DNA of 64,000 bases from an uncultured Gemmatimonadales bacterium (GTDB lineage: Bacteria; Gemmatimonadota; Gemmatimonadetes; Gemmatimonadales; GWC2-71-9): positions 10,043 to 74,042 of the forward strand of contig CAWKMI010000009.1 of NCBI GenBank assembly GCA_963850655.1, in the 5' to 3' direction. Made by a program: the position numbers and the translations under genes. This document shows positions 14,462 through 61,318 of the stretch, in pieces. How positions within the stretch are numbered: the first letter of the stretch is position 1; the number at the start of each line of letters is the position of its first letter. The notes under the pieces were generated by a model. The model saw only the letters and a program-made list of their open reading frames with translations. It was not told where the DNA came from and ran no database searches.

Positions 14462-14655
14462 TCAGGTCCCTGGATGTGGGATGCGAGGGGCGGCAACTAA
14501 CCCCTGAATCTGCACGGAGATGCATCAGCGAGCAACGTGCCGCCGCCACCTGCCGTTGCGACAGGTCCCGGTGGGTGCTTCCTGAGCCGGAGTGCCCCTC
14601 TGGCGGTCGACGGTCGTCCACTCGGCCAGTCGGGCAGGATTACCTTCCCAAGCGT

Positions 14656-14671
14656 TGGCACGCTGGATGCC
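14656..14671 (+). promoter_or_regulatory. Possible sigma-54 (-24/-12) promoter upstream of lon
   Basis: TTGGCACGctggATGCC compared with the consensus TGGCACG-N4-TTGCW. The GG/GC spacing is correct. About 75 nt upstream of the lon GTG. Confidence 0.25.
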
Positions 14672-14745
14672 ATTCCTGCTCCACTGGCCATGCCCCGACT
14701 CGGCCTGATGAACCTGCCGGGTCAGCACGAGCAAAGGAGATCACC

Positions 14746-17279
<2,534 letters not shown>

Positions 17280-21974: not shown

Positions 21975-22934
21975 CTACTGGTACTGGATGTAGAGGGGAA
22001 TCGGCGTCAATCGAAGGATCTCACTCCGGGTCATCATCGGCCGGTCGTTCTTGAAGAAGAGCTTGATTCCCGTGAACTGGACCGGGCGACGACTGACAAC
22101 CAGGTCGTAGATCCGCCTCTTGAGGGGAGGCGTGCCGAAACCGTCCATGTCGATCACGACCTGGACCCTCGGGTCGGTTCGGATGCCTCGGTAGTTGGTC
22201 AGCATGTTCTCGGTGAAACGGTGAATCACCAGGACCTTCGGCGGCAAGTGCTCCTCGTCGACCAGCCTTGCGAGCACGTCGATCGCTGCGTTGATCTGCC
22301 GTGCGTCGAGGGTGCCGATCTTCGATCCCGGCACCCGCCCGGCGGGCATCGCGAACTCCGGGTCGAGTGCGAGGTGGACCCAGGGCTTTTTGAGCCAGGG
22401 AATCAGGCGCGGCAACTCCGCGGCCACCGTACTCTGTCCCACCTGAATGTCGAGGAAGAGGAGCCATCCTCGCGTCTCGGCCCAGCGGGCGACCTCGGCG
22501 ATCAGGCTGTCCGAGTGCCGCAAGCGGTACTTGGCATCCGTGCCGGGCTTCCCCTGTGCCACGGTCGCAATCAGGTGCAGGGCCGGCCGGACCGTCCTGG
22601 TGGTGTCGGCCTTCGCCCACTCCCCGGCGATGTCATGAAGCTTGGCGAGCATCTGCTCGGGTGGCAGTTCGCCGAGGATTCCCATCCGGGTCGACCGGGG
22701 ATTGCCGTAGAATGCCACGACCCGGTTTGCCGGGAAGAGGGCGCCCGGCAGCACCGGGATCAGATGGTGCGACCACGGCGTGGCGTTGCTGTCCGTCTGA
22801 ACGACGGGCCGTGCCGCCTTGGGGCTGGTCCCCTGGCTCGCGGGAGGCTTGACCGGACGCTGGGCCCACGCCGGCGTGGCGCAGAGCGTCGTCACGAGCA
22901 TGAAGATCGTGGCCGGGTGTCGCAGTCTCATCAT
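21975..22934 (-). CDS. Exported hypothetical protein
   Basis: ORF 21975..23012 with the start moved to ATG 22934, giving signal peptide MMRLRHPATIFMLVTTLCATPAWA. 8-nt gap to the downstream gene. Confidence 0.6.
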   Translation of the reverse strand: MMRLRHPATIFMLVTTLCATPAWAQRPVKPPASQGTSPKAARPVVQTDSNATPWSHHLIPVLPGALFPANRVVAFYGNPRSTRMGILGELPPEQMLAKLHDIAGEWAKADTTRTVRPALHLIATVAQGKPGTDAKYRLRHSDSLIAEVARWAETRGWLLFLDIQVGQSTVAAELPRLIPWLKKPWVHLALDPEFAMPAGRVPGSKIGTLDARQINAAIDVLARLVDEEHLPPKVLVIHRFTENMLTNYRGIRTDPRVQVVIDMDGFGTPPLKRRIYDLVVSRRPVQFTGIKLFFKNDRPMMTRSEILRLTPIPLYIQYQ

Positions 22935-23031
22935 GTCGGGAAGCATAAGTGGTAGGCGGTCGGCGTTGTTCGCCTTGCCGGGGCTCGGTGTACATTGTTC
23001 CCGACGAGGCAATCACTCTCGAGGAGCCCGG

Positions 23032-23268
23032 ATGCGAATCGACATCACCTATTGCGTGGTCTGAAACTACGAGCCACGGGCCTCCAGTCTGGCGGCCGAG
23101 CTGCACGTACTCTATCCCGAAGCCGAGGTGCGGATGCACCAGAGCAGCGGCGGTGTGTTTGAAGTTGCCCTCGATGGCAACATGGTCTACTCGAAGCGCG
23201 CCACCGGTCGTCACGCCGAGCCAGGTGAAGTGAAACGTCTCATACAGGAATTCATGGACCGCTCGTGA
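23032..23268 (+). CDS. SelW/Rdx-family selenoprotein (78 aa) with in-frame UGA = Sec at 23062-23064
   Basis: ATG 23032 follows GAGGAG. Translation: MRIDITYCVVUNYEPRASSLAAELHVLYPEAEVRMHQSSGGVFEVALDGNMVYSKRATGRHAEPGEVKRLIQEFMDRS. CxxU sits at the position of the Rdx-fold CxxC, followed by the GGVFEV...DG..VYSK...GR motif. Candidate SECIS hairpin at 23079-23097. Stop TGA 23266-23268 overlaps the pfkA GTG. Confidence 0.8.
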
Positions 23269-24344
23269 AAATTGCCATTTCAACCGGCGGCGGAGACGCT
23301 CCCGGACTCAACGCCGTCATCCGGGCCGTGGTCCTCTCGGCCGTCGATCGTGGCTGGCAGAGCATCGGCATCCGTCGTGGATTTCAAGGCCTTTTCGACG
23401 GTGACGGGCTCTTGCCGCTCGGGCCAGATGAGGTGCGCGGCATCACCCACCTTGGCGGCACCATTCTCGGTGCAGCGACCAAGGGCAATCCGCTCCGCTG
23501 GCCCAAGCTTCAGCCCGACGGCCGGGTCGTCGAGGTCGATCGCTGCTACGAGTTGATCGCCGCCTTCCAGCGTGAGCAGATCGACGCGCTCGTCTCGATC
23601 GGCGGCGAGGGGTCGCTCACCATCGCCGGCGAGCTCTGGCGTCGCGGACTGCCCGTCGTCGGCGTGCCCAAGACCATCGACAACGATGTGGTCGGAACCG
23701 AAACCACCTTCGGTTTCGACACCGCCGTTTCCACCGCCACCGAAGCACTCGACAAGCTGCACACCACCGCCGAATCGCATGATCGGGTCATGGTGGTGGA
23801 GTTGATGGGACGCAATGCCGGCTGGATCGCCCTGCACAGCGGCATTTCGGCCACGGCGGACGTGATCCTCATTCCCGAGATTCCCTTCGACATCGAGCGC
23901 GTCTGCGACAAGATCCGTGATCGAGAGCGCCATGGGCGTCACTTCTCGATTGTCGTCGTCGCCGAAGGTGCGGTTCCGATCGGCGGCAACGCCATGGTGC
24001 GGGTCGCCGGTGCTGCCGGCGAGATGGATCGCCTTGGCGGGATCGGGGAGCATGTTGCCCGGGGCATCATCGAGCGCACCGGCAAGGAGACCCGCACCCT
24101 GGTCCTCGGCCACCTGCAGCGCGGCGGTCCGCCGACCACCTTCGACCGCCTGCTGGCCCTGCGCTTCGGGTCCGCCGCGGTGCGATCGATCGCCGACGGC
24201 GAATTCGGCGTGATGGTCGCGTACAATCCGCCCAATCTCACGCGAGTGCCACTTGACCAGGTCGCCGGGAAGACCAAGCGGGTTCCGCTCGATTCCGGCG
24301 TGATCCTCACGGGCCGTCACCTCGGCATTTCCTTCGGCGACTGA
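23265..24344 (+). CDS. pfkA: ATP-dependent 6-phosphofructokinase
   Basis: 359-aa ORF with TGGGDAPGLNAVIRAVV, GVPKTIDND and MGRNAGWIAL motifs. Confidence 0.9.
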   Translation: MKIAISTGGGDAPGLNAVIRAVVLSAVDRGWQSIGIRRGFQGLFDGDGLLPLGPDEVRGITHLGGTILGAATKGNPLRWPKLQPDGRVVEVDRCYELIAAFQREQIDALVSIGGEGSLTIAGELWRRGLPVVGVPKTIDNDVVGTETTFGFDTAVSTATEALDKLHTTAESHDRVMVVELMGRNAGWIALHSGISATADVILIPEIPFDIERVCDKIRDRERHGRHFSIVVVAEGAVPIGGNAMVRVAGAAGEMDRLGGIGEHVARGIIERTGKETRTLVLGHLQRGGPPTTFDRLLALRFGSAAVRSIADGEFGVMVAYNPPNLTRVPLDQVAGKTKRVPLDSGVILTGRHLGISFGD

Positions 24345-24870: not shown

Positions 24871-25446
24871 TCAGCCGCGATCTCCTTGCTGAATGAAGTT
24901 CTGCAGCAACTGATGCCCATGCTCGGTGCTCACCGACTCGGGATGGAACTGCACTCCCTCGACCGGATGCGTGCGGTGCCTCACGCCCATGATTTCGCCG
25001 TCGTCCGCAAAGGCCGTGAGTTCGAGCTCCGCCGGTACGCTGTCCGGAGCGATGGCGAGCGAGTGATAACGTGTGGCCCGGAATGGTGACGGCAGTCCGG
25101 TGAGCACCCCTCTTCCATCGTGAGAAATCGCCGAGGTCATGCCGTGTCGCGGCCGGCGGGCCCGCGTCACAACCGCCTGATACGCCTCGGCGATGCACTG
25201 ATGCCCGAGGCAGACTCCGAGGATGGGCGTTGATGGTCCAAGCTCGCGAACGACGGCGATGGCCAGCGGGCAGTCATGCGGCGTGCCGGGGCCTGGCGAG
25301 AGTATGATCCGGCGGGGTCGCAACGCCATCACCGCCGCCAGGGAGAGGGAACTCGCGCGCACGACCCGGGCCTCTTCGCCGAGTTCCGCCACGTACCGGG
25401 CGAGGTTGAACACGAACGAATCGTCGTGATCAAGCAGGAGGATCAT
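24871..25446 (-). CDS. pabA: Glutamine amidotransferase component II (aminodeoxychorismate/anthranilate synthase)
   Basis: MILLLDHDDSFVFNL..., catalytic GVCLGHQ, and C-terminal GVQFHPES. The ATG overlaps the pabB stop (ATGA at 25443-25446). Confidence 0.8.
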   Translation of the reverse strand: MILLLDHDDSFVFNLARYVAELGEEARVVRASSLSLAAVMALRPRRIILSPGPGTPHDCPLAIAVVRELGPSTPILGVCLGHQCIAEAYQAVVTRARRPRHGMTSAISHDGRGVLTGLPSPFRATRYHSLAIAPDSVPAELELTAFADDGEIMGVRHRTHPVEGVQFHPESVSTEHGHQLLQNFIQQGDRG

Positions 25447-26828
25447 GTCGCTTCCGCCAGTGCGGCGATGAGCGCGCGTGCCTTGTCGAGTGTCTCCCGG
25501 TACTCCTCGTCCGGGTCGGACGGTGCGGTGACACCGCCTCCGACGTGGACCGCCGCCACGCCGTCCTTCACGATGATGGTCCGAATGGCGAGGTTGCAGT
25601 CGAGACCGCCATCGAGCCCGAGCCATCCGATCGCGCCACAGTAGGCGCCGCGCCGCACCCGCTCCAGTTCGGCCAGGATGGCCATCGCGCGAAGCTTCGG
25701 CGCCCCGGTCACCGATCCGCCCGGGAAGGTCGCCGCGAGCAGGTCCAGTGCATCCGCATCCGGCCGGAGCCGGCCGGTGACCGTGGAGACGAGGTGGTGG
25801 ACCGTGGCATGTGACTCGAGGCGGCAGAGCGACTCGACCGCGACGCTTCCCGGCGCGCACACGCGCGACAGGTCGTTGCGCAACAGGTCGACGATCATCA
25901 CGTTCTCGGCCCGGTCCTTTTCGCTTGCTGCCAACTCCCGGGCCAGCTCCGCGTCACGCTGCGAGTCCGCGTCGCGCGGCCTCGTTCCCTTGATCGGGCG
26001 CGTCTCCACCGTTCGCGTCCCGGGGTCGTACCGGAGGAATCGCTCCGGCGACGCGCTGAACAGTTGCACCGCGTCGTGCCGGACGTAGGCGCCAAGTGGC
26101 GCGGGTGCCAGCCGCTCGAGGGAAGCGAGCAGGGTGGCCGGTTCGCCCGTGAATGGTGCGGTGAAGCGCTGGGTCAGGTTGGCCTGGAAGATGTCGCCCG
26201 CGAGGATGTATGCGATCACCCTCGCCACGGCAGCGCGGTACTCTGCCGGGCTGAAATCGGCATGCAATCCTGGTGGCAGTCTCCCGAAGGCGGCGCCATC
26301 ATCGCCGGGGCGTGGCTGGGGCGGGACAGCGGGCGGGGCGGCGACCAGCGCCATGACCGGCGCCGCCCTGGCGATCGCCCTGGACTGGTCGCGCGTTCCG
26401 ATCGCGTCCACTCCAGTGCTGATCAGCCAGCAACCCGACTCGTGATGGTCCCAGGCAATCACCCAGTCATAGAGTCCCAGGGCGATGTCCGGGAGCCTGA
26501 ACGGATCGGAACTGACGAGCGGCATGCGATCGAAGGCCCGGCCAAGTTCGTACGAGAACCATCCCATCCAGCCGCCCTGAAATGGCGGCAGTCCGGGCTC
26601 GCTGGGTGAGGTCGGGGTGAGCGTCGCGCGAAGTCGTGCACCCAGCGCATCCCATTCCGGCGCATCGCCGGTCAGGACGGACACCGGATCGGCGGCGAAA
26701 TAGCTGTAGCGCCCAAGGGGGTGGGATGGGACCGTGCTGTGGAGGAGCACGGGCCGGGGCAGATGTCCCAGCCTGGCAAGGGCGCCGTTCGGCGAGAAGG
26801 GGAACTCGAGCGGGAGAATCACCGGCAC
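25443..26828 (-). CDS. pabB: Aminodeoxychorismate synthase component I
   Basis: 461-aa chorismate-binding enzyme with FPGGSVTGAPK, RGAYCGAIGW and ENVMIVDLLRND motifs. The short N-terminus and pterin-gene neighbours favour PabB over TrpE. Confidence 0.7.
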   Translation of the reverse strand: MPVILPLEFPFSPNGALARLGHLPRPVLLHSTVPSHPLGRYSYFAADPVSVLTGDAPEWDALGARLRATLTPTSPSEPGLPPFQGGWMGWFSYELGRAFDRMPLVSSDPFRLPDIALGLYDWVIAWDHHESGCWLISTGVDAIGTRDQSRAIARAAPVMALVAAPPAVPPQPRPGDDGAAFGRLPPGLHADFSPAEYRAAVARVIAYILAGDIFQANLTQRFTAPFTGEPATLLASLERLAPAPLGAYVRHDAVQLFSASPERFLRYDPGTRTVETRPIKGTRPRDADSQRDAELARELAASEKDRAENVMIVDLLRNDLSRVCAPGSVAVESLCRLESHATVHHLVSTVTGRLRPDADALDLLAATFPGGSVTGAPKLRAMAILAELERVRRGAYCGAIGWLGLDGGLDCNLAIRTIIVKDGVAAVHVGGGVTAPSDPDEEYRETLDKARALIAALAEAT

Positions 26829-26853: not shown

Positions 26854-27207
26854 TCAGCGCTTCACCCAGCCGGTGGCTTGTCCTTCGAGACCCGGGAAGT
26901 CGCCGGCTGGTTGCCAGGTGACCGTGGCCTCGATCCGCTCGGCGAGCTGAAGATCCTTGTCGGTCACTCCACCAGCCGAGTGAGTCTGCAGTCGTACCAC
27001 GATCCGGTTCCAGTGCACCTCGAGATCCGGATGGTGGTTCGCCGCCTCCGCGAGGAAGGCGATGGCGTTTACCGCCATCATCGTCGTGCGCCATCCGTCG
27101 GTTGCGTATTCTCGCCGCAGCCAGCCGTCAGCCCCGCTCCAGAGGGACAAGGCGGTCAGCCTCGAGGCGAGGGCGTTGCCATCGTACACCGGTTCCTTGG
27201 CGCGCAT
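26854..27207 (-). CDS. Pterin-4a-carbinolamine dehydratase
   Basis: 117-aa ORF with the AEAANHHPDLEVHWNRIVVRLQTH motif characteristic of PCD/DCoH. Confidence 0.8.
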   Translation of the reverse strand: MRAKEPVYDGNALASRLTALSLWSGADGWLRREYATDGWRTTMMAVNAIAFLAEAANHHPDLEVHWNRIVVRLQTHSAGGVTDKDLQLAERIEATVTWQPAGDFPGLEGQATGWVKR

Positions 27208-27232
27208 CGATCACCTCAGTGCGGGGATGCGG

Positions 27233-27736
27233 TCAGTCCAGTCGTTCGCTGTAGGTCGCGGTCTGGCCGATCGACTCCTCGACCTCGATTTCGAGGAACG
27301 TCAGCTTCGCCCCTTCGGCCTCGAGGTCGGCGCGGAGACGAACCGCAAACCATTCGGCGATCATCTCTGCGGTGGTGTTGGCGATCGGCATCATCGCACA
27401 ATCCCTGGTGGGGAAGTGATATGTCGGGATGCCGAAGTAGTCGACCCAGGTGTTTCCGTCTGCCTCGCGGAAGGCGAGCTTCGGGTTGCCGGTCGGCAGC
27501 AGGACCCGATGATCGATCTGCTCAACGTACTTCCTGGCCAGTCGCTTGAGAATGGCGAAATCAACCACGAAGAGGCACTCGGCGTCGATCGGTCCCTCGA
27601 CCGTCAGGCCGATGCGATAGTTGTGTCCGTGCAATGACTCGCAGGTGTGGCCTCGAAGCGTGATGAAATGGGCCGACGAAAAGGCCAGGTAATCCTTGCT
27701 CACGCTCACGCGAAATGTGCCCACAGCTTTCCTCAC
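27233..27736 (-). CDS. 6-pyruvoyl-tetrahydropterin synthase / QueD-family protein
   Basis: 167-aa ORF (GTG start) with FSSAHF and CESLHGHNY (Zn/catalytic Cys-His motif). Confidence 0.8.
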   Translation of the reverse strand: MRKAVGTFRVSVSKDYLAFSSAHFITLRGHTCESLHGHNYRIGLTVEGPIDAECLFVVDFAILKRLARKYVEQIDHRVLLPTGNPKLAFREADGNTWVDYFGIPTYHFPTRDCAMMPIANTTAEMIAEWFAVRLRADLEAEGAKLTFLEIEVEESIGQTATYSERLD

Positions 27737-45268: not shown

Positions 45269-46333
45269 ATGAAGCAGGCACTTCAGCAGTACAAGCAGTA
45301 TCTGTTGACGGGCGTGTCCTACGTCATTCCGATGATCGCGTGCGGCGGCATTCTCATCGCCTCGGCGATCGCCTTGTTGACGTTCCTCCATCCCGAGGCG
45401 ATGACTGCCAGTGGGCCCGATTTTTCAGCGGCGCCCAACCTGCAGATGGTGCTCGACATCGGGGTCGCCGCATTCACCCTGGCGCTTCCCGTGCTCGCAG
45501 GATACATCGCGTATGCCATGGCCGGACGCCCGGGGCTCGTGCCGGGGTTGATCGGGGGCTACCTGGCCGGGACGACGAAGGCGGGGTTCCTCGGCGCGCT
45601 GCTCGCTGGCCTGCTGGCGGGACACGTGGTGAACCTCGTCAAGAAGATGCCGGTGCACCGGTTCGTCCGCCCGATCATGCCGATCATCATCATTCCGATC
45701 GTTTCGAGCCTGGTGGTGGGTGTCGTCATGCTCAAGGTTGTCGGTGTGCCGATCGCCGACTTCATGACGTTTCTGAGTGGCTGGCTCGCCACGATGGGGA
45801 AGGGGAACGAACTCGTGCTCGCCGCGATCCTCGGCGGCATGATTGCTTTCGACATGGGTGGCCCCGTGAACAAGGCCGCGTTCTTCTTTGGCGCGGCGAT
45901 GATCAAGGAAGGCAATTTCGCGGTGATGGGCGCCTGCGCGGCGGCCATCTGCACGCCGCCGCTCGGCCTGGCGCTCGCGACGCTCACCGGGCGGCGGCTC
46001 TGGTCGGAGGAGCAACGGGAGTCGGGGCTCGCCGCGCTGGGGATGGGGATGGTCGGGATCACCGAGGGGGCGATTCCCTTCGCCGCGGCCGATCCGGTGC
46101 GGGTCATCCCGTCCATCATGGTCGGGTCGATCGTCGCGGCCTTCATTGCCATGCTCGGTGGCGTCGGCGATCATGCACCTCATGGCGGACCGATCGTCCT
46201 CCCGGTCGTCGACCATCGCTGGGCCTACGTGCTGGCGATCGTCGTCGGATCGGTGGTGACCGCGCTCGTCATCAACCTGCTCAAGAAGACCACCGACAAG
46301 GCCGTTGCGGAGACGGCGGGAGTGGCCCTGTGA
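45269..46333 (+). CDS. PTS fructose-family EIIC component
   Basis: 354-aa polytopic ORF with LLTGVSYVIPMIACGGIL, AFDMGGPVNKAAF and ITEGAIPFAAADP motifs of Fru-type EIIC. Confidence 0.85.
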   Translation: MKQALQQYKQYLLTGVSYVIPMIACGGILIASAIALLTFLHPEAMTASGPDFSAAPNLQMVLDIGVAAFTLALPVLAGYIAYAMAGRPGLVPGLIGGYLAGTTKAGFLGALLAGLLAGHVVNLVKKMPVHRFVRPIMPIIIIPIVSSLVVGVVMLKVVGVPIADFMTFLSGWLATMGKGNELVLAAILGGMIAFDMGGPVNKAAFFFGAAMIKEGNFAVMGACAAAICTPPLGLALATLTGRRLWSEEQRESGLAALGMGMVGITEGAIPFAAADPVRVIPSIMVGSIVAAFIAMLGGVGDHAPHGGPIVLPVVDHRWAYVLAIVVGSVVTALVINLLKKTTDKAVAETAGVAL

Positions 46334-46623
46334 AGATCGTCGCGGTGACCGCCTGTCCAACCGGCGTTGCCCACACCTACATGGCCGCCGAACAGCTGAC
46401 GAAGACCGCGGCCAAGCTGGGTCATTCGATCAAGATCGAAACCCAGGGCTCGATGGGGATCGAGAACGAACTGAGCCAGGCCGACATCGATTCGGCGGAC
46501 GCGGCGATTCTCGCGGCAGACATCATGATCGAACAGCCCGAACGCTTCGCCCGCATCCGCAAGATCGAAGTCCCCGTCCACGACGTGCTGAGGAACCCCG
46601 AGGAGCTGTTCGCGAGGTTGTGA
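46330..46623 (+). CDS. PTS fructose-family EIIB component
   Basis: GTG 46330 overlaps the EIIC stop (GTGA). VKIVAVTACPTGVAHTYMAAEQL carries the phospho-Cys motif. In the track it is embedded at the end of the spurious 732-aa ORF 44425..46623. Confidence 0.85.
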   Translation: MKIVAVTACPTGVAHTYMAAEQLTKTAAKLGHSIKIETQGSMGIENELSQADIDSADAAILAADIMIEQPERFARIRKIEVPVHDVLRNPEELFARL

Positions 46624-46626
46624 CCC

Positions 46627-49146
<2,520 letters not shown>

Positions 49147-49191
49147 CATTCGACGATACCCACCTTGGACTTCATCCGGGAGAAGCAGGTC

Positions 49192-52100
49192 ATGCAACGT
49201 TTTCCAAGATTGCTGGCGGTGGTGCTGCTGGCGCAGCTGGCAGTTCCGGCCGGTCTGATCGCGCAGGGCGCGCAACGCACTCCGCCTGACCTCGCGAGGC
49301 AACCCACCCTGTACGTCGTTCCCTATGCCCACCTCGACACCGAATGGCGCTGGGACTACCCGACCACCATCCGCGAGTATCTCCCGGCCACGCTGCGCGA
49401 CAACTTCGCGCTGTTCGAGAAGTACCCCAACTACGTCTTCAATTTCAGCGGCGCCAACCGCTACCGGATGATCAAGGAGTACTACCCGGCCGACTACGCG
49501 ACGATGAAGGAGTACATCGCGGCCGGGCGCTGGTTCCCCTCGGGGTCCTCGATGGAGGAGAACGACGTCAACTCTCCGTCAGCCGAATCGACGATGCGCC
49601 AGATCCTCTATGGCACGCAGTACTTCCGGAACGAGTTCGGCAGGACCAGCGCGGAGTACATGCTGCCGGACTGCTTCGGATTTCCCGCGTCGTTGCCGAG
49701 CATCCTCGCCCACATGGGGCTCAAGGGGTTCTCGACCCAGAAGCTGAGCTGGAATTCCGCGATGGGCATCCCGTTCAATGTCGGTTTCTGGGAGGGGCTC
49801 GACGGCAAGGGCGTTGTCGCGGCGCTCAACGCCATGACGTACAGCGGCAGCGTGACCCAGGACATCTCGAAGAGTCCGCCTCCGCCCGCCGAAGGACAGC
49901 GCAGCGCGCCGACGGACTGGCCAGCGCGCATCGCCGAGGACGCCCAGAAGGGCGGCCTGATGGCGGATTACTACTACTACGGCACGGGTGATGTCGGTGG
50001 CGCGCCGCGCGAGGCCTCGGTGGCGCTGATGGAAGCGATCGTGACCAAGGGGCTCGGGATCATCCCGGCACCACCGGGGCCACGCACACCAGGACAGCCC
50101 CCGGCTCCCGTCCCGACGCCAGCACCGGTGCGAGTTGGCGATGGTCCCGTGCACGTCGTGCAGGGGTCGGCAGAGCAGATGTTCCTCGATATCAAGCCGG
50201 ATGAACTGCCCGGTCTGGAACACTACCAGGGCGATCTGTTGCTCACGCAGCATTCGGCCGGCTCGATCACGTCCCAGACGTACCTCAAGCGCTGGAATCG
50301 TCAGAACGAAGTGCTTGCGGATGCTGCAGAGCGCGCGTCGGTCGCGGCAGCATGGCTCGGTGGACGGCCCTATCCGATGAAGCGGCTGAACGATGCGTGG
50401 ACGCTGGTCATGGGAGGGCAGTTCCACGACATCATTCCCGGCACCAGCATTCCGAAGGCATATGAGTATGCCTGGAACGATGAACTCCTTGCACTGAACC
50501 AGTTCTCGGGCATCCTGACCAGTGCGACCGACGCCGTGTCCTCGCTCCTGAACACGCAGACCAAGGGCGCCGCCCTCGTGGTGTTCAATCCGCTCAATAT
50601 TGCGCGCGAAGATGTCGTCGAAGCGGACGTGGCATTCGCCGGTGGTGCACCGACATCGGTGCGCGTCACCGGGCCGGATGGCAAGGAGGTCCCCTCGCAG
50701 GTGACGGCGGCGGGGAAGGTGCTCTTCCTCGCGAAGGTCCCCTCGTCAGGCTACGTGGTGTTTGACGTGCAGGGTGCCGGCGCCGCGGGCGGCAAGAAGG
50801 CCGCATCGGCGCTTGCCGTGACGGCCTCGACACTCGAGAACGCCCGCTACCGCATCAAGCTGGACGAGAACGGTGATGTCGCCAGCCTGTTCGACAAGTC
50901 GATCAAGAAGGAACTGCTGGCGGCGCCGATTCGCCTGGCGATCAAGACCGACAAGCCGGTGGACTGGCCGGCCTGGAACATGGACTGGGCCGACCAGCAG
51001 AAGCCGCCGCGCGCCTTCGTGCAGGGACCGGCGAAGATCCGTGTCGTCGAGATTGGGCCGGCGCGCGTCGCCATCGAGGTCGTGCGGGAGACGGAAGGTT
51101 CCGTCTTCGCCCAGACAATCCGCCTTTCGGCCGGTGACGCGGGCAACCGGGTCGAATTCAGCAACGTCGTCGACTGGAAGACGGCCGAGGCCAACCTCAA
51201 GGCCACCTTCCCGCTGACCGCCTCGAATCCGCTGGCCACCTACAACTGGGACATCGGGACCCTCCAGCGCAGCAATGACGACGAGAAGAAGTTCGAGGTG
51301 CCGTCACATCAGTGGTTCGACCTGACCGACAAGTCGGGAACGTTCGGTGTGACCGTGCTGCAGGACAGCAAGAATGCCTCTGACAAGCCCGACGACAACA
51401 CGCTGCGCCTGACGCTCATGCGCACGCCGGGGATCGGCACCGGCAACGGACGCTCGTACGCCGACCAGTCGAGCCAGGATTGGGGGCACCACGAGTTCGT
51501 GTTCGGCCTCGCGGCGCATGCCGGTGACTGGCGACAGGGGCAGACCGACTGGCAGGCGTGGCGGCTGAACCAGCCGTTGCTCGCCTTCGAGACGGCCAGG
51601 CATCCCGGCGCCCTCGGCAGCAGCTTCTCGCTGTTCCGGCTGAACACCAGCCGGATCCGCGTGCTGGCGGTCAAGCGCGCCGAGCAGAGCGACGAAATCG
51701 TCGTCAGGATGGTCGAACTCGACGGCAAGCCGGCCAAAGGAGTCAGTCTCGCCTTTGCCGGACCGATCACCAGCGCGCGCGAGATCACCGGCGCCGAACA
51801 GCCGCTCGGTACCGCGACGGTGACCGCGGGCGCCCTCGTGACGGATTTCACGCCCTATCAGATCCGCAGTTTCGCGCTCAAGCTGGGCTCGGCGCCGAAC
51901 GCACTGACGCCGCCCCGGTGGCAAGCCGTGACGTTGCCCTACGACCGGAAGGTGGCCAGCAACGACCACTCGGTCAGTGGCGGCCAGTTCGACGGATCCG
52001 GGCGAAGCCTTCCGGCCGAGATGCTCCCCCGCGACCTGCCCTTCAAGGGGATTCACTTCACGCTCGCGAGTCCCGCGACATTCAACGCTGTCGTGGCGCA

Positions 52101-52596
52101 AGGCCAGACGATCGCGCTCCCGGCAGGCAGCTTCACCCGCGTCTACCTGCTCGCGGCTGCCGAAGGTGACCAGAAGGCGACATTCCGGGTTGGTGACATG
52201 CCCGTCGACCTCACCATCCAGGACTGGGGTGGTTACATCGGCCAATGGGACAACCGTCTCTGGACCTCCCGGGAGGAAGCCGTTCCGCCGCGCGCCGGTG
52301 CTGCCCCAGGGACACCGGTCCGCATGCGCACCGTCACCGAGTACGCCGGCCTGACGCCGGGCTTCGTGAAACACGCGCCGGTCGCGTGGTTTGCCTCGCA
52401 TCGTCACCTGAGCGACGGGAGCAACGATCCCTACGCGTATTCCTACCTGTTCGCGTATTCGATCGATATCCCTGCTGGTGCCACGACGCTCACGCTTCCC
52501 GTCAACGGCAGGATTCGTGTGCTGGCCGTGACGGTGTCCGATGAAGCCGCGGCGGTGCGGGCGGTGTCACCGCTCTATGACGCCCTGATGCGGTAG
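49192..52596 (+). CDS. Glycoside hydrolase family 38 alpha-mannosidase, exported
   Basis: Start at ATG 49192 (signal peptide MQRFPRLLAVVLLAQLAVPAGLIAQGA). VVPYAHLDTEWRW, SITSQTYLKRWNR and GQFHDIIPGTSI motifs resemble GH38. Confidence 0.75.
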   Translation: MQRFPRLLAVVLLAQLAVPAGLIAQGAQRTPPDLARQPTLYVVPYAHLDTEWRWDYPTTIREYLPATLRDNFALFEKYPNYVFNFSGANRYRMIKEYYPADYATMKEYIAAGRWFPSGSSMEENDVNSPSAESTMRQILYGTQYFRNEFGRTSAEYMLPDCFGFPASLPSILAHMGLKGFSTQKLSWNSAMGIPFNVGFWEGLDGKGVVAALNAMTYSGSVTQDISKSPPPPAEGQRSAPTDWPARIAEDAQKGGLMADYYYYGTGDVGGAPREASVALMEAIVTKGLGIIPAPPGPRTPGQPPAPVPTPAPVRVGDGPVHVVQGSAEQMFLDIKPDELPGLEHYQGDLLLTQHSAGSITSQTYLKRWNRQNEVLADAAERASVAAAWLGGRPYPMKRLNDAWTLVMGGQFHDIIPGTSIPKAYEYAWNDELLALNQFSGILTSATDAVSSLLNTQTKGAALVVFNPLNIAREDVVEADVAFAGGAPTSVRVTGPDGKEVPSQVTAAGKVLFLAKVPSSGYVVFDVQGAGAAGGKKAASALAVTASTLENARYRIKLDENGDVASLFDKSIKKELLAAPIRLAIKTDKPVDWPAWNMDWADQQKPPRAFVQGPAKIRVVEIGPARVAIEVVRETEGSVFAQTIRLSAGDAGNRVEFSNVVDWKTAEANLKATFPLTASNPLATYNWDIGTLQRSNDDEKKFEVPSHQWFDLTDKSGTFGVTVLQDSKNASDKPDDNTLRLTLMRTPGIGTGNGRSYADQSSQDWGHHEFVFGLAAHAGDWRQGQTDWQAWRLNQPLLAFETARHPGALGSSFSLFRLNTSRIRVLAVKRAEQSDEIVVRMVELDGKPAKGVSLAFAGPITSAREITGAEQPLGTATVTAGALVTDFTPYQIRSFALKLGSAPNALTPPRWQAVTLPYDRKVASNDHSVSGGQFDGSGRSLPAEMLPRDLPFKGIHFTLASPATFNAVVAQGQTIALPAGSFTRVYLLAAAEGDQKATFRVGDMPVDLTIQDWGGYIGQWDNRLWTSREEAVPPRAGAAPGTPVRMRTVTEYAGLTPGFVKHAPVAWFASHRHLSDGSNDPYAYSYLFAYSIDIPAGATTLTLPVNGRIRVLAVTVSDEAAAVRAVSPLYDALMR

Positions 52597-52721: not shown

Positions 52722-52741
52722 TTGTTAACCTATCTTAACAA
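52722..52741. promoter_or_regulatory. Palindromic operator candidate TTGTTAA-N6-TTAACAA upstream of the DtxR-feo operon
   Basis: Perfect 7-bp inverted repeat in an AT-richer patch, 44 nt upstream of ATG 52785. Confidence 0.5.
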
Positions 52742-52784
52742 AGTTCAGGCCACCCCATTTCGTGCGATCGAACGAGAGCCAACC

Positions 52785-53336
52785 ATGGATGTCTGGAAGC
52801 GATTCGGTGAGAAGGAAGTGTCCCATTCGATGGCCCACTATCTCCAGGCCGTGGCGACGCTGAAGGCCGAGAAGGGGCATGCCCGCGTGGTCGATATCGC
52901 CGACCACCTTGGCGTCTCGAAGAGCGGCGTCACTTCGATGCTGCACTCGCTGCAGACCCGGGAGTTGGTGACCCACGAGCGCTACGGCAACGTCGAGCTG
53001 ACGGAGGCAGGCCAGCGCCTCGCGTCGCGCACGGAGTCGAGTCGCCGGGTCCTGACGCTCTTCCTCACCGAAATCCTCGGTGTCTCCGAAGCCGTTGCCA
53101 GCGAGGACGCTTGCATGATCGAGCACCTCGTGAGTCCCGAGGTGTCGGTCGAACTGCTTCGCCTGACCTCTTTCCTGCGGTCGCAGCACCCGGCCGCTAC
53201 CCAGTTCCGCGAGCACTACCGGGCCAGTCCGCGCTCGTGTGCCGAACACGAGCCGGGCGGATGCGACATGTGCGGGGCGACCTGCTTACGCGACTCGCTG
53301 GTCAGCGAGATCGGCCGGATCAAGTCACCGGCATGA
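52785..53336 (+). CDS. DtxR/MntR-family metal-dependent transcriptional repressor
   Basis: SHSMAHYLQAVATL...ARVVDIADHLGVSKSGVTSMLHSLQTRELV (wHTH). Metal-site-like residues. Start taken at ATG 52785. Confidence 0.8.
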   Translation: MDVWKRFGEKEVSHSMAHYLQAVATLKAEKGHARVVDIADHLGVSKSGVTSMLHSLQTRELVTHERYGNVELTEAGQRLASRTESSRRVLTLFLTEILGVSEAVASEDACMIEHLVSPEVSVELLRLTSFLRSQHPAATQFREHYRASPRSCAEHEPGGCDMCGATCLRDSLVSEIGRIKSPA

Positions 53337-53593
53337 ACCCGCCGGGGCAGGGCCGTGAACCCGCGAGTCGACCGCTCGACCGTCTTTCTCCGGGCGAGGG
53401 AGGCCGCATCGTGCATCTCGACGCCGAGCCCGGCATCAAGCGTCGCCTGATGGAACTGGGCCTGGTGCCCGGCACCGTCGTGGAGATGGTCCGGGCGGCG
53501 CCACTCGGCGATCCGATCGAGGTGGCCGTTCATGGAACTCACCTCTCGTTGCGTCGCTCGGAGGCCTGTCACATCCATGTTGCCTCGCGTTGA
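53333..53593 (+). CDS. feoA: Ferrous iron transport protein A
   Basis: The ATG overlaps the DtxR stop (ATGA). LSPGEGGRIVHLDAEPGIKRRLMELGLVPGTVVEMVRAAPLGDPIEV is a FeoA SH3-like domain. Confidence 0.85.
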   Translation: MNPPGQGREPASRPLDRLSPGEGGRIVHLDAEPGIKRRLMELGLVPGTVVEMVRAAPLGDPIEVAVHGTHLSLRRSEACHIHVASR

Positions 53594-55822
53594 GCCGGCG
53601 GTGAGCACCGCTGTTCCGGTACCCGACCAGTCACCCCAGCGAACCGTTCGCTGGGCGGCACCGCGACGCATTGCCATCCTGGGCAATCCGAACTCGGGGA
53701 AGTCGACGCTCTTCAACGCGCTGACCGGGTTGCGGCAGAAGGTCGGCAACTACCCCGGCGTCACGGTCGAGAAGAAGACGGGCACCTGCGGGCTCCCCTC
53801 GGGCGGGCGGGCCGAGCTGATTGACCTGCCGGGCAGCTACGGCTTGCATCCCGCCTCACCTGACGAGCGAATCGTGCGCGATGTCCTGCTCGGGCTGCAG
53901 GCCGACACGCCGCCGCCGGACCTCATCGTGTTCGTGGTCGACGCGACGAATCTCGATCGCCACCTGAACCTGGCGCTGCAGGTCATCGGACTGGGCCGGC
54001 CACTGGTGCTGGTGCTCAACATGATGGACTCGGCTCGTGAGCAGGGCATCCGGGTCGACTTCACGGCGCTGGAACGACTCCTTGGTGTGCCGGTGCTCGG
54101 CACCGCGGCTTCGAAGGGGGAGGGGCTTGATGCGTTGCGTCGGCTGATGGAACGGGAGATCGAGCCCTCCACCCAGCACTTTCGCCAGCGTCCGGCGCAC
54201 CTGCAGCGCGTGCTCGACCGGCTCGAGGCGCGACTGCCGCGTCACGAGAAGCTGCCCGAGCGGGCGCGCCACGACTTCGCGCATGCGCTCCTGCTCGACG
54301 ATGGCGAGGATGACGTCCTCGCGCGCGCCATCGCGCCGGCGGTTCTCGACGATGCGCACACCCTGGCCCGGCGGCTCGACCAGTTCTCGCCCGACTGGCG
54401 TTCCGACGACGTCGAAGGGCGCTTCGAGACCATCCGCGAGATTCTCGATGCCGCGGTCGTGGCGCCCGGTGAGCACCTCGACAAGCGCCGCGACTCGATC
54501 GACCGCGTGCTCACCCACCGCATCTGGGGGCCGGTGCTCTTCGTCCTGCTCATGGGCGCGGTGTTCCAGTCGGTGTTCGCGTGGGCGCAACCGATCATGG
54601 ACCTGATCGACGCGCTGGTCGGCACGTTCGGGCACGCGCTCGAGACGCGTCATGCCGCCGGGCCCGCTTCGCTCCCTCGTGGTTGATGGCGTCGTTGCCG
54701 GCGTGGGGACGACCCTCACCTTCGTGCCCCAGATCGCCATCCTCTTCTTCTTCCTTGGGGTGCTCGAGGACACCGGCTACATGTCGCGCGCGGCGTTCAT
54801 CATGGATCGCATCATGGGCCGCGTCGGGCTTTCGGGCCGCGCGTTCATCCCCCTGCTCTCCTCGTTCGCCTGCGCGATTCCCGGCATCATGGCCACGCGC
54901 ACCATCGACAACCGCCGCGATCGCATCACCACCATCGTCATCGCCCCGTTCATGTCGTGCAGCGCGCGGCTGCCGGTGTACGCGCTGCTGATCGGCGCGT
55001 TCATCCCCAATGTCTGGGTCGGCTTCATCACGCTGCCGGGCATCATGCTCTTCTCGATGTACTTTCTCGGCATCCTGGCGGCCATCGTCGTGGCGTCGGT
55101 GCTCAAGCGCACCGTGCTGAGCGGTGGCCGTCCGCTCTACGTGATGGAGTTGCCGCCCTACCGGATGCCTTCCTGGGGCTCGATCCTGCTCACCGTGCGC
55201 GAACGCTCGTGGCTCTTCATCAAGAACGCGGGCACGGTGATCCTCGCGATCACGGTCGTGCTCTGGTTCCTGGCGTCGTACCCGCGCGGGGGCGGCGAGG
55301 TACCGGCGCTCGAAGCCCAGCGCGCCGTGGCGGTTGCCGCCGGCGACGCTCCCGCAGGCCAGGCTGCTGGATGGCCGTATTGCGGGGATGTCGCTGCGAA
55401 CACTCGTTCGCCGGCCGCGTCGGCCACTTCATCGAGCCCGCGATCGCGCCCGCTCGGATTCGACTGGCGCATCGGTGTCGCGCTGATCACGTCGTTCGCC
55501 GCGCGCGAGGTGATGATTTCGACCATGGCCACCATGTTCAACCTCGGCAACGCGAACGACGACGTCGTCCCGCTGCGGCAGAGCCTTCGCGACGCCACTG
55601 ACCCGCACACCGGCCTGAGGGCGTACACGCCGCTCACGGCGCTGAGCCTGATGGTGTTCTTCGTGCTCGCCTGCCAGTGCATGTCCACGGTTGCCATCGT
55701 GCACCGCGAGACCAACTCGTGGCGCTGGCCGCATCTTCATGCTGGTGATGATGAACCTGATGGCGTGGCTGGCGTCGTTTGGCGTCTACCAGGGCGGCAG
55801 GATGCTGGGGTTCGGAGCATGA
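53577..55822 (+). pseudogene. feoB: Ferrous iron transporter FeoB, interrupted as sequenced by about five +1 frame shifts
   Basis: G-domain AILGNPNSGKSTLFNALTG and DLPGSYGL in frame 0. Membrane domain in frame 1 from about 54650. Conserved ...SLEHSFAGRVGHFIEPAIAP|LGFDWRIG is recovered only by stepping through frames at about 55358, 55397 and 55452. The true C-terminus IFMLVMMNLMAWLASFGVYQGGRMLGFGA* is in frame 2 from about 55730. Confidence 0.85.
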
Positions 55823-56043
55823 GCAGCGAACTGGTCCAGAACGCGCTTGTCGCCCTCATCGTGCTCGCCGCCGCGGGCTTTCTGGTGTGGCGGCGCGTGC
55901 GGGCGCGGCGGAAGCCGACGCCCTTCTGCGGCGACTGCCCGCGCTGCGCGACGGGTCACGCCGAATCGGCGGGGCCGGCGCTCGTGAACATCGCCAGGGC
56001 GCGGGCGGACCAGTCTACCGGCGTTCCGGGCCCGGACGCCTAG
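55819..56043 (+). CDS. FeoB-associated Cys-rich small membrane protein
   Basis: The ATG overlaps the reconstructed feoB stop (ATGA). MSSELVQNALVALIVLAAAGFLVWRRVRARRKPTPFCGDCPRCA has a single TM helix plus a CxxCxxC cluster. Confidence 0.7.
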   Translation: MSSELVQNALVALIVLAAAGFLVWRRVRARRKPTPFCGDCPRCATGHAESAGPALVNIARARADQSTGVPGPDA

Positions 56044-59000
56044 CGGCCGCTGCCTTCACCCCCATCCGTGCCAGCATCCGCTCGAGGCGCTCGAGCTGGG
56101 TGATGGTCACCGTGATGGCCCCGAACTCCTCCTCGACCTTGCCGCGGAAGATGAACGGTCCCTGGTCGAAGAGGACGTGGGAGCGCTCGCGGTAGACGTC
56201 GGGGAAGAGGACGCACTCGACCAGTCCTTCGCCATCGTCGAAGGTGGCGAATTGCATCGGTTCGTCGTTGGCGGTGTGGATCGGCTTGCCGGTGGTGTAC
56301 ATCCCGGCCATCAGGACACTGCGGCCGACATGTTCGGGCAGCCGCGCGCTCGGCACCAGCCGGAAGCGGCGCAGTGCCTCGGCATGGAGCGCCATCGGGT
56401 GCGCGTCAAGGCAGAAGGAGAGCAGGGCCCAGGCATCCTGTCGTTTGCGCTCGGGGGAGTAGTCGCGGAGCAGGGGAACGGCATGCGCCGCCGTGACTGG
56501 CAGCCTCTCATCCTCACCCGAGATTCCTCGCTTCGCTCGGGATGACACCTCTGAGTCGATGCTCCAGAGCAGCTGGGGACGGTTCAGCTTCCCGGCGATC
56601 GCGTCACCGGCCCCCACCTTCACGAGCAGGCGGAGATCATCAGTGGCGAGTGCGGTGCGCGCCCGCAGGTTCGCCAGGGACTGATAGGGCCCGCCCCGGC
56701 TGCGCTCGGCGAGCAGGCGTTCTGCGCCGCCGGCCGAGAGTCCCTTGATGAACTGCAGCCCGACCCGCAGCTCGTGCCCGGCGCCGGTGCAGCGCCACTC
56801 GCTGGCGTTGACGTCGGGTGAGAGGATGGTCACGCCCATCCGGCGCGCCTCGGCGACGTAGGCAAACGGGTGGTAGAAACCGCCGCCATTGGCCAGCACG
56901 GCGGCGATGAACTCAGCCGGATAGTTGGCGCGGAGATAGGCGCTCTGTTGTGCCACCTGGATGTAACTGCATGAGTGGCCCTTGCAGAACGAATAGCCGG
57001 CAAATGAGCTGACCATCTGCCACACCGTCTCGATGCTCGCGTCGCTGCGACCGAGCGCGCGGGCTCCCGCCACGAACTCCTCGAGGTAGGCCACCAGGTG
57101 CTTCTCGGGGCGCTTCTTGGAGAGTGCCTTGCGCAGCCCGTCGGCGGCCGACCAGGAAAAGCCGGCAAAGGCGTGCGACACCGTGACCACATCCTCCTGG
57201 TACACCATCACGCCGAACGTCTCGGCGAGGACTTCGCTCAGGCACGGATGCAACGGCTCGTACGGGGTGCCATGCAGCCGTTCGAGATAGCTGCGGATGA
57301 AGCGATTCGACGCCGGGCGGATGATGCTGGTGTTGAGCACCAGCAACTCGAAGGTGTCGGCCTTCGACTTGAGGTTGAGCTGCCGGGAGGCCGGCGACTC
57401 GGTGTAGAAGACGCCGAGCGTCTCGCCGGTGCGGAAGGCGCGGCGGGTGGCCGGATCGTCGCCTGCCTCTGACGAGGTGTAGTCGAGTTGGACCCCGGTG
57501 TTGACGCGCACCATGGCGATCGCGTCGCGGATCACGGCGAGCGAGCGGTTGCCGAGCAGGTCGATCTTCACGAGGCCGGCATCTTCGGCGCCGTCCTTCT
57601 CGAACTGGATCACCGGCACCGTGAGGTCCGGTGCGCCGTCGAGCTGCTTGGCCGCGCGCTCGATCGGCACCACGTCGGTGAGCGAGGTGGGGACGATCAC
57701 CACCCCGCCCGGATGCAGCGAGAGATGGCGCGGCGTCCCGACCAGCGTCTCGGCGATGACGGCAAGGTCCTGCCACACCTTCGAGCAGCTTGAGGGCACG
57801 GAAGTTGGGGTGCGTGGCGAACAGTTCGCGGGCCGAGCCCTCGCTGCCGTACATCGGCACCCGGCGGGTGACCTCGCGGATCTCGGCGGCGGGGCGGCCG
57901 TGCACCTTGGCCACCTCGCGCAGGGCGCCCGCGAGGCGCAGGCAGTTGTGGTTGCTCACCATCGCCGCGCGCGGTTTGGGGTACTTGCGAAAGACCCACG
58001 CGAGAATCCGGTCGCGCTCGTCCCACGGAAAATCGAGGTCGATATCGGGCGGGTCCTTGCGCGCCGGGTTGAGGAAGCGCTCGAAGAGCAGGTTGGCGCC
58101 CAGCGGTTCGACGTGGGTGATGCCGAGGCAGTAGGAGACGATCGAATTGGCGACGGAGCCGCGGCCGCAGTGCGTGGGGCCGTGCTGCACGATGTCGTGC
58201 ACCACGAGGAAGTAGTCGGCGAAGTGCTTGAGGGCAATGATCTCCAGTTCGTGCTCGAGCCGGTCGCGGGTGACCGGGGCGATGGTGCCGTAGCGGCGCA
58301 CCGCGCCGTCGTACGCGAGGGTGCGCAGCCGGCCGATCGCATCGCTGGTGTCCGCAGCGCGGGGCGCGATGATCCGCCCCATCGGGATGCGATACCGGCA
58401 CCGCTCGGCGATGTCGTGTGCGGCGGTGAAGGCCTCGGGCACATCGGGGAAGTGACGCTCGACATCGGGTGCGGGACGAAGCCAGGCCTCGCGCGGCCAG
58501 GCATCATCCACTTCCGACAGGGTGATGTTGCGGTGAATGGCGCGCAGCAGCCAGTGCCGGTTCCAGTCATCCGCGTGCGCGGCAATGACGCCGCCGGTCA
58601 CGACCGAGGGAATGCCAAGGCGCCGTGCCGCCGCGAGGGTGGCATGACGTCCCGGGCCCGGGCGCAATTCGGCATGGAGCCCGGCCGGGCCGCTGGCGCG
58701 CACCAACTGTTCGAGCAGCACCACATCGCGACTCATCACGACCAGCCCGTCGCGATCCGCGGCGAGGTGTGCCACAAGGTCAAGGTCATCGTGCCAGTGG
58801 ATCGCCGTGGCAGCGCGGCAGAGCGCGCCCCAGCCGTGATCGTCCTCGGCCAGCACCACCGCTTCGTGCCCGCCGGCCACGAGGTGACAGCCGAGAATCG
58901 GGCGCACGCCTGCTGCATCACAGGCGCGCTGGAACTCGATCGCGCCGTAGACGCCGTTGGTGTCGGTCATGGCGATGGCAGGAATGCCGCGCCGTGCCGC

Positions 59001-59078
59001 GGCCTGCGCCAGCGCCTCGGGCGAGGAGGTGCCGCTGCCGAAGGAGAACCAGGTGTGGACGTGCAGATGAGGGAACAT
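56015..59078 (-). pseudogene. dnaE2: Error-prone DNA polymerase III alpha homologue DnaE2, interrupted as sequenced by one +1 frame shift
   Basis: ATG 59078: MFPHLHVHTWFSFGSGTSSPE (PHP domain) and following sequence in one frame to ...HPNFRALKLLE, then VWQDLAVIAETLVGTPRHLSLHPGGVVI... in ORF 56015..57799. Junction at about 57780-57790. Length is 3n+1. Confidence 0.85.
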
Positions 59079-59087
59079 GATGGACTC

Positions 59088-59188
59088 GAGAAGCGAGAGA
59101 GGAGAGACGAGAACAACGTCAATCGCCCCGCGCCTATGTAGTATTATCCCGAGCTCTTTTCGTCTCTCGTCTCTCGTCTCTCGGTTCT
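59088..59188. repeat. Inverted heptamer arrays (GAGAAGC GAGAGAG GAGAGAC GAGAACA ... CGTCTCT x3 CGGTTCT) bracketing the dnaE2/qor divergent promoter
   Basis: Read directly from the sequence. Arms at 59088-59115 and 59161-59188. The 45-nt spacer contains the AT-rich CTATGTAGTATTATCC. Confidence 0.85.
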
Positions 59189-59190
59189 TC

Positions 59191-61294: not shown

Positions 61295-61303
61295 CGGAAA
61301 ACC

Positions 61304-61318
61304 GAACATACACCGAAA
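61304..61318. promoter_or_regulatory. GAAC-N7-GAAA direct repeat (alpha-proteobacterial-type LexA-box-like) just upstream of imuB
   Basis: ccGAACatacaccGAAAcc lies 10-24 nt upstream of ATG 61294 and has one mismatch to GAAC-N7-GAAC. Confidence 0.2.

Follow-up and report, generated by a model that had tools for sequence, protein, structure and literature searches.

Reading frame and gene layout

The 64-kb stretch of Gemmatimonadales DNA analysed here (the window, with a G+C content of 66.5%) contains, immediately upstream of a phosphofructokinase (pfk) gene, a short frame interrupted by a TGA codon, raising the question as to whether this codon ends the frame or specifies selenocysteine (Sec) within a longer one. 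Translation from the ATG at 23032 gives ten sense codons (MRIDITYCVV) followed by the in-frame TGA at 23062-23064, beyond which another 67 open codons precede the terminal TGA at 23266-23268; with U at the internal TGA the product reads MRIDITYCVVUNYEPRASSLAAELHVLYPEAEVRMHQSSGGVFEVALDGNMVYSKRATGRHAEPGEVKRLIQEFMDRS. An earlier note on this DNA had proposed the same 78-codon read-through translation, and re-translation from the same ATG is identical to it. The note had also remarked that the gene is split or missed in the list of open reading frames, as indeed it is, since only an ORF that ends at the TGA (22819..23064), an out-of-frame ORF of 94 aa (22949..23233) and a 46-aa tail (23128..23268) are listed at this locus. 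Its claim that the stop overlaps the start of pfkA is likewise borne out: the terminal TGA shares the tetranucleotide GTGA with a GTG at 23265-23267, and the ORF that begins there matches phosphofructokinase profiles. The features of the locus are collected in Table 1. The gene at 23032-23268 is a genuine, mis-annotated selenoprotein gene, and sequence comparisons make it highly probable that it is a Sec-decoded SelW-like (Rdx family) gene of a Gemmatimonadota bacterium.

Table 1. Features of the selW-like locus and of the adjoining phosphofructokinase gene.
Feature	Position	Strand	Basis or remark
Shine-Dalgarno-like GAGGAG	23021..23026	+	Read from the sequence, 5-nt spacer to the ATG; function putative
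Complete CDS, 78-residue SelW-like/Rdx selenoprotein	23032..23268	+	Translation and profile matches
CxxU redox motif Cys-Val-Val-Sec	23053..23064	+	Sec codon UGA at 23062-23064
Bacterial SECIS stem-loop	23079..23097	+	23079-23085 pairs with 23091-23097; conserved, covarying
44-aa C-terminal fragment MHQSSGG...DRS	23134..23268	+	Sole form in the public protein collection (P0005)
Phosphofructokinase gene	23265..24344	+	359-aa ORF; GTG start overlaps the selW-like stop (GTGA)

Family assignment and predicted product

Profile searches, run with U written as C, assign the product to the Rdx family along its full length and at scores well past what chance would give, in keeping with the SelW-like reading of the earlier note. 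The Pfam Rdx model (PF10262) matches the 78 residues with an E-value of 1.3e-20 and 73.8 bits (cutoff 22.6), spanning positions 1-73 of its 74, and two NCBIfam models also score above their cutoffs: TIGR02174 (CXXU_selWTH) with 59.4 bits against 34.2, and NF041051 (SelT/SelW/SelH family (seleno)protein) with 91.3 bits against 88. When the ten residues before the TGA are left out the Rdx score drops to 51.8 bits, and the gain of about 22 bits that they provide shows that the upstream segment is homologous too, a point on which the earlier note had staked its reading and to which the coding-type variation among relatives, described below, adds.

Five solved bacterial Rdx structures (2fa8, 3dex, 2oka, 2p0g and 2obk, of which the first two are Atu0228 and SAV_2001) align by sequence to residues 2-76 of the product, with E-values from 3e-9 to 3e-6, and the structure of human MIEN1 (2ljk) aligns by sequence to residues 2-60 (E 5e-6). 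The Y-C-x-x-C of the structures falls on Y-C-V-V-U, the heptapeptide Y-C-V-V-U-N-Y being aligned with Y-C-T-Q-C-N/R/Q-W in 2fa8, 3dex and 2oka and its redox motif with CVVC and CIVC in the natural homologues P0001 and P0003. The U thus occupies the column of the second Cys of the CxxC motif, both in Cys-form homologues and in the Rdx structures, and the CxxU motif lies directly after the first beta-strand, as is characteristic of the Rdx family. From full-length sequence homology to the five structures a thioredoxin-like alpha/beta fold is predicted. The product would then be a small protein of this fold whose Cys-x-x-Sec centre sits where the first beta-strand ends, and this centre would most likely, to judge from the family, cycle between a selenenylsulfide and the reduced thiol/selenol form in the manner of a thiol-dependent oxidoreductase.

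The solved Cys-form proteins differ from the product in being longer (about 105 aa, with C-terminal extensions), in having C-T-Q-C in place of C-V-V-U, and in lacking the SK(R/K)xxGRHAEPGE segment that is highly conserved in the Gemmatimonadota clade. Mammalian selenoprotein W and MIEN1 (C17orf37) belong to the same Rdx fold family and carry CxxU/CxxC at the same position, but eukaryotic SelW depends on a SECIS element in the 3'-UTR together with SBP2/eEFSec, as opposed to an in-frame SelB hairpin of the kind proposed here. Mammalian SelW has 14-3-3 as a reported partner, a role not established for the bacterial proteins. Glutathione is another reported partner, its interaction being mentioned along with the CXXU motif in PMC1088965, and is similarly not established for the bacterial proteins.

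Conservation of the UGA codon among relatives

A protein search recovered 22 relatives, nearly all of them N-terminally truncated calls of 44-69 aa that start past the TGA position. One of these, P0005 (44 aa, 100% identical, NCBI/ENA), lies on a 94,430-bp contig and is the source record's own version of the selW-like gene. The full-length relatives among the 22 are P0001 (YCVVCNYEPRA) and P0003 (YCIVCNYEPRA), both of which have Cys in the U column.

At the nucleotide level we compared 160 related loci. Species-representative genomes, nearly all of them Gemmatimonadota MAGs, supplied 80 of these, and metagenomes, mostly of soil, the other 80; the closest species-representative relative is L001, a Gemmatimonadetes MAG with 78% identity. 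The aligned codon is TGA in 159 of the 160 and TGC in the remaining one (L014), which together with P0001 and P0003 makes up the set of Cys-containing orthologues that the earlier note had suggested looking for. The peptide M-x-V-x-I-E/Q-Y-C-V-V-*-N-Y-E-P-R-A-A-G-L-A-A-E is kept on either side of the TGA across the 160 loci, and in the seven codons preceding it the entropies at the three codon positions (0.43/0.35/0.86 over 145 distinct sequences) follow a coding pattern. The locus therefore presents an in-frame UGA that aligns with the Cys of homologues and is flanked on both sides by conserved coding sequence, as a selenoprotein gene should. With the TGA retained in all but one locus and coding-type variation upstream of it, neither a nonsense mutation, nor an assembly error, nor a downstream start can explain the codon; and because UGA is also the ordinary stop codon of the selW-like gene itself, as it is of neighbouring genes, it has not been reassigned.

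Elsewhere in the window six other TGA-interrupted frames were flagged, all of them junctions of adjacent genes or antisense frames, by a filter that is insensitive and missed the selW-like gene too. We also note that one related locus (L020), whose contig was assigned by binning to Trebonia sp. (Actinomycetota), is identical to that of a Gemmatimonadales MAG (L019) both over 66 nt from the UGA and in the recovered peptide, and that this identity probably reflects a mis-binned contig in one of the two MAGs.

A conserved stem-loop downstream of the UGA

The earlier note had tentatively pointed to a hairpin at 23079-23097 as the SECIS element, and comparison with relatives raises this assignment above tentative: the 7-bp stem is conserved, five of its seven pairs have changed on both sides with pairing retained, mostly at the basal pair, and the loop resembles that of Escherichia coli fdhF. 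In the window the hairpin has the form GGCC-U-CC[AGUCU]GG-C-GGCC, with a single U.C mismatch in the stem (23083 against 23093) and an apical loop AGUCU at 23086-23090 that begins 24 nt from the U of the UGA, so placing the loop G-U about 25-27 nt away. The consensus of the relatives is GGCCGCC-[GGUCU]-GGCGGCC. Bacterial SECIS elements of the type sought by bSECISearch have a small apical loop that contains a G and lies 16-37 nt from the UGA, and the hairpin at 23079-23097 has just such a small, G-containing loop shortly 3' of the codon.

In an ungapped alignment of 138 distinct sequences, standard pairs fill 93.4% of the hairpin cells; shifting the 3' arm by one to three columns lowers this to 17-59%. 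Double-sided changes occur at five of the seven pairs, in 34 cells, a result that none of 500 shuffles matched, although 28 of these 34 cells are at the basal pair alone. At the basal pair 86 sequences have GC, 16 have AU and 12 have CG, and since both columns of this pair are third codon positions (of Arg CGN and Ala GCN) the covariation is at synonymous sites. Whole-stem replacements are also seen, namely GCUGUG/CACAGC (L080), GCCGCA/UGCGGC (L063), GCCUCC/GGAGGC (L069) and GCCACC/GGUGGC (L047). The commonest loop is GGUCU (105 sequences), followed by AGUUU (17) and by AGUCU, the form in the window (12), and 134 of the 138 have G-U at loop positions 2-3. Third-position entropy is 0.70 over the twelve codons past the TGA compared with 1.41 further downstream, and this halving of synonymous variability over the hairpin points to a constraint beyond that on the protein. 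Conservation of the stem as such is largely confounded with protein constraint, because the stem sits in a conserved Ala-rich coding stretch.

The hairpin in the window is less stable than its consensus form, at about -9 to -11 versus -14.9 kcal/mol. Its unpaired position is the fifth of the stem, which is also unpaired in 38 of the 138 sequences and is evidently tolerated. Folding of the single sequence from 23062 to 23125 gives a structure that is not unusually stable (z = -0.15) and whose minimum-free-energy form differs from the SECIS hairpin, a result that is by itself uninformative. RNAalifold, applied to the 138 sequences, favoured a shifted 4-bp register, which we rejected: it shows no covariation, whereas the 7-bp register is 93% paired and its slid versions 17-59%. 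Searches of Rfam for SECIS families gave no match at gathering thresholds and, under permissive settings, just chance-level hairpins of unrelated families (E 0.4-1.1). Bacterial SECIS elements are short and gene-specific, and we do not count an Rfam miss against one.

These observations are consistent with a mechanism in which the mRNA 15-35 nt past the UGA would fold into the 7-bp stem with its NGUYU loop; SelB carrying GTP and Sec-tRNA(Sec) would bind this hairpin and, by analogy with E. coli fdhF, deliver Sec at the UGA, where the ribosome would insert selenocysteine rather than terminate. Both the binding of SelB and actual selenium incorporation at 23062-23064 are predicted from that analogy.

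The Cys-form loci agree with this reading. In L161, the locus of P0001 (L161 564-800), the codon is TGT and the hairpin fully intact, which looks like a recent single-base switch from Sec to Cys (TGA>TGT). In L014 (about 2001-2235) and in L162, the locus of P0003 (L162 1201-1428), the stem is kept and the loops are GCGCU and GCUCU respectively, the G-U having been lost through a Gly-to-Ala codon change; the loop dinucleotide is thus absent from two of the three Cys lineages. Taken together, L161, L162 and L014 are a small natural series in which the SECIS decays once Sec has been lost.

Comparison with known systems

The reference SelB-binding element is the SECIS of E. coli fdhF, whose loop G-U is contacted by SelB. 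We verified the fdhF sequence inside annotated fdhF in 5,419 E. coli genomes, its apical part being GCA-GGUC-UGC. Both hairpins lie within coding sequence just 3' of the UGA, both have the same GGUC(U) loop (CC-GGUCU-GG in the Gemmatimonadota consensus), and in both Ala-Gly-Leu is encoded across the loop. They differ in that the loop G-U is one codon further away in Gemmatimonadota (nucleotides 26-27 from the U, versus 23-24 in fdhF) and in that the helix is G+C-rich, 7 bp long and without the bulged U of fdhF, with no lower stem detected; the copy in the window differs further in its A, not G, at the first loop position and in the U.C stem mismatch. The fdhF-like loop implies that Gemmatimonadota have a conventional SelB system.

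Bacterial SelW-like selenoproteins are an established family. In the Sargasso Sea selenoproteome no family was more abundant, 48 Sec forms being counted to 7 Cys forms (PMC1088965), and theirs is one of the families for which Sec-containing organisms have hardly any Cys homologues or none (PMC1794560). They have been described in Campylobacter and further Epsilonproteobacteria as well, and genome annotation is known often to truncate their genes or to leave them 'completely missed' (PMC4607533). The Gemmatimonadota gene shares with them a size of about 75-80 aa, a CxxU motif directly after beta-strand 1, an in-frame UGA followed by a small stem-loop with a G in the apical loop, the rarity of Cys homologues, and truncated or missed annotation. 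It is distinguished by its host, no description of a selenoprotein in this phylum having been found in the searchable literature, by frequent overlap with a downstream pfk gene, and by Sec being almost fixed in the clade.

The gene therefore joins an established bacterial family and is a catch of a standard annotation failure, and the understanding of Sec decoding and of the Rdx family is unchanged by it. What is modestly new is the phylum, the near-fixation of Sec, the fdhF-identical SECIS loop and the frequent pfk overlap. Gemmatimonadota are an abundant soil phylum, and in the loci sampled a SelW-like selenoprotein is almost fixed in its Sec form. The public record for this genome, like most of those for its relatives, has just a C-terminal fragment of the gene, 44-61 aa long; the catalytic half and the Sec residue are thereby missing from protein databases, and selenium use in Gemmatimonadota is under-counted as a result.

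Alternative readings of the UGA

Were the TGA a real stop, the locus would be either a pseudogene or a Cys-form Rdx gene with a sequencing or assembly error, and it is true that TGA is one base from TGC or TGT and that the Lon, DnaE2-like and FeoB genes of the same assembly contain apparent frameshifts. These other errors are indel-like rather than substitutions, however, and the same TGA is present in almost every one of the independently assembled relatives, with purifying selection on both sides and a conserved SECIS-like hairpin after it; as far as comparative data can decide, this explanation is effectively refuted, and we give it next to no credence. An equally slim chance attaches to expression of the downstream part only, from the GTG at 23128 or the ATG at 23134, with the upstream frame either non-coding or a 10-codon leader peptide. 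Automatic gene calling yields exactly such products (the 44-aa P0005 and the 46-aa ORF), but the 44-aa fragment would begin too late to include beta-strand 1 or helix 1 of the Rdx fold, or the CxxU centre, the internal Met is replaced by Leu or Ile in relatives, and the ten upstream codons are conserved as protein, vary at third positions and contribute the 22 bits of family score noted above.

It is also conceivable that read-through of the UGA inserts Cys, Trp or Gly independently of SelB, through either near-cognate suppression or a local recoding. Such a reading draws on the Sec machinery not having been demonstrated in the window and flanks, and on the accessible literature having yielded nothing on Sec in Gemmatimonadota. 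Against it, UGA is still a normal stop in the selW-like and neighbouring genes, the spacing of the hairpin and its G-U loop are typical of a SelB-dependent SECIS and match the fdhF loop, and the site is the catalytic C/U column, at which Sec is the usual alternative in the family (TIGR02174); moreover, retention of UGA in 159 of 160 loci makes sense only if it encodes what sense codons cannot. We consider read-through with another amino acid very unlikely, and favour Sec insertion.

The earlier note had suggested a genome-wide search for the Sec machinery, and the sequence available for this comprised the 64-kb window and about 540 kb of retrieved flanks (some 600 kb in all), in which no selA, selB, selD or tRNA-Sec was found. 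The roughly 45 ORFs of the window include no SelA, SelB or SelD by comparison with Pfam and NCBIfam, and the window contains no tRNA detectable with ARAGORN and no match to any RNA family at the Rfam gathering score. ARAGORN found no tRNA-Sec in the flanks either, and exploratory searches of window and flanks by tblastn, with E. coli SelA, SelB and SelD as queries, returned just a generic GTPase match to FeoB. The lack of selA/B/C/D in a 64-kb slice of a genome is uninformative. On Sec use in Gemmatimonadota we found nothing in the searchable literature, and the supplements of Peng et al. 2016 have no entry for it.

Association with the phosphofructokinase gene

The ORF that begins at the overlap is identified as a phosphofructokinase by its matches to Pfam PFK (E 1.7e-100) and to two NCBIfam models, NF002872 (366 bits, cutoff 253) and TIGR02483 PFK_mixed (425.6 bits). 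A homologue was found by tblastn in 107 of the 160 loci, at 57-92% protein identity. The selW stop was located in 153 loci, and in 101 of these the pfk homologue follows immediately on the same strand, 49 of the 101 having the identical 4-nt (A/G)TGA overlap. We considered whether the adjacency might be universal and rejected this, as one Gemmatimonadales clade lacks it, and so do the few MAGs labelled Fibrobacteraceae or Chloroflexota; the pairing is a frequent synteny within the lineage, going by the loci compared, and not a fixed feature. Because the selW-like stop overlaps the pfk start, co-transcription and translational coupling of the two genes are probable, and they likely form an operon. 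Around the pair we detected neither a sigma-70-like promoter nor a terminator. Upstream of the selW-like gene are two ORFs on the opposite strand without a family match, and downstream of pfk is a 169-aa ORF, hydrophobic by sequence and also without a family match, followed by pabA/pabB-like genes.

The frequent pairing, seen in about two-thirds of the Gemmatimonadota relatives, is a new clue, though a weak one, to what bacterial SelW-like proteins do, and any regulatory meaning of the overlap is speculation. One such idea is that Sec retention and the pfk overlap form a functional unit through which entry into glycolysis would be selenium- or redox-gated in Gemmatimonadota. Ribosomes would then reach the pfk start, by termination and reinitiation, only after decoding the UGA as Sec, and the synthesis of PFK, and possibly its thiol redox state by way of the SelW-like protein, would be tied to selenium or redox status. 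We think it very unlikely that such gating operates.

Other features of the window

The pabA/pabB-like genes, which encode components of aminodeoxychorismate/anthranilate synthase, are on the minus strand at 24871-26828 and 26854-27736 and adjoin genes for pterin-4a-carbinolamine dehydratase and 6-pyruvoyl-tetrahydropterin synthase, forming a folate/pterin cluster just past pfk. Some 400 nt are shared between the 329-aa GATase ORF and the chorismate-binding ORF, and the GATase start is therefore probably internal.

Several genes are distributed over more than one frame. The Lon protease gene (14476-17279, plus strand) extends over three, with the substrate-binding part at 14476-16182, the AAA+/lid part at 15464-16849 and Lon_C at 16599-17279, which implies two apparent frameshifts, arising either from assembly indel errors or in a pseudogene. 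A gene for a DnaE2-like pol III alpha subunit, in the minus-strand region 56015-61309, occupies two frames (PHP/NTPase at 56913-59441, finger/HHH at 56015-57799) and adjoins a gene for a Y-family polymerase (ImuB-like, IMS; 60086-61309), and the two together resemble an imuB-dnaE2 mutagenesis cassette that contains a single apparent frameshift. FeoB (53532-56043, plus strand) is represented by two overlapping ORFs in different frames, the FeoB_N GTPase at 53532-54686 and Gate/FeoB_C at 54652-56043, a possible frameshift; just upstream lies a gene for an iron-dependent, DtxR-like repressor (52722-53336). From these apparent frameshifts the base-level quality of the assembly appears imperfect.

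A sugar-uptake cluster on the plus strand (45269-52596) encodes a PTS EIIC of fructose type (45269-46333), an HPr-EI-EIIA fusion protein (46627-49146) and an alpha-mannosidase of family GH38 (49165-52596), and its presence in the same window as the pfk gene at 23265 hints at PTS-fed glycolysis.
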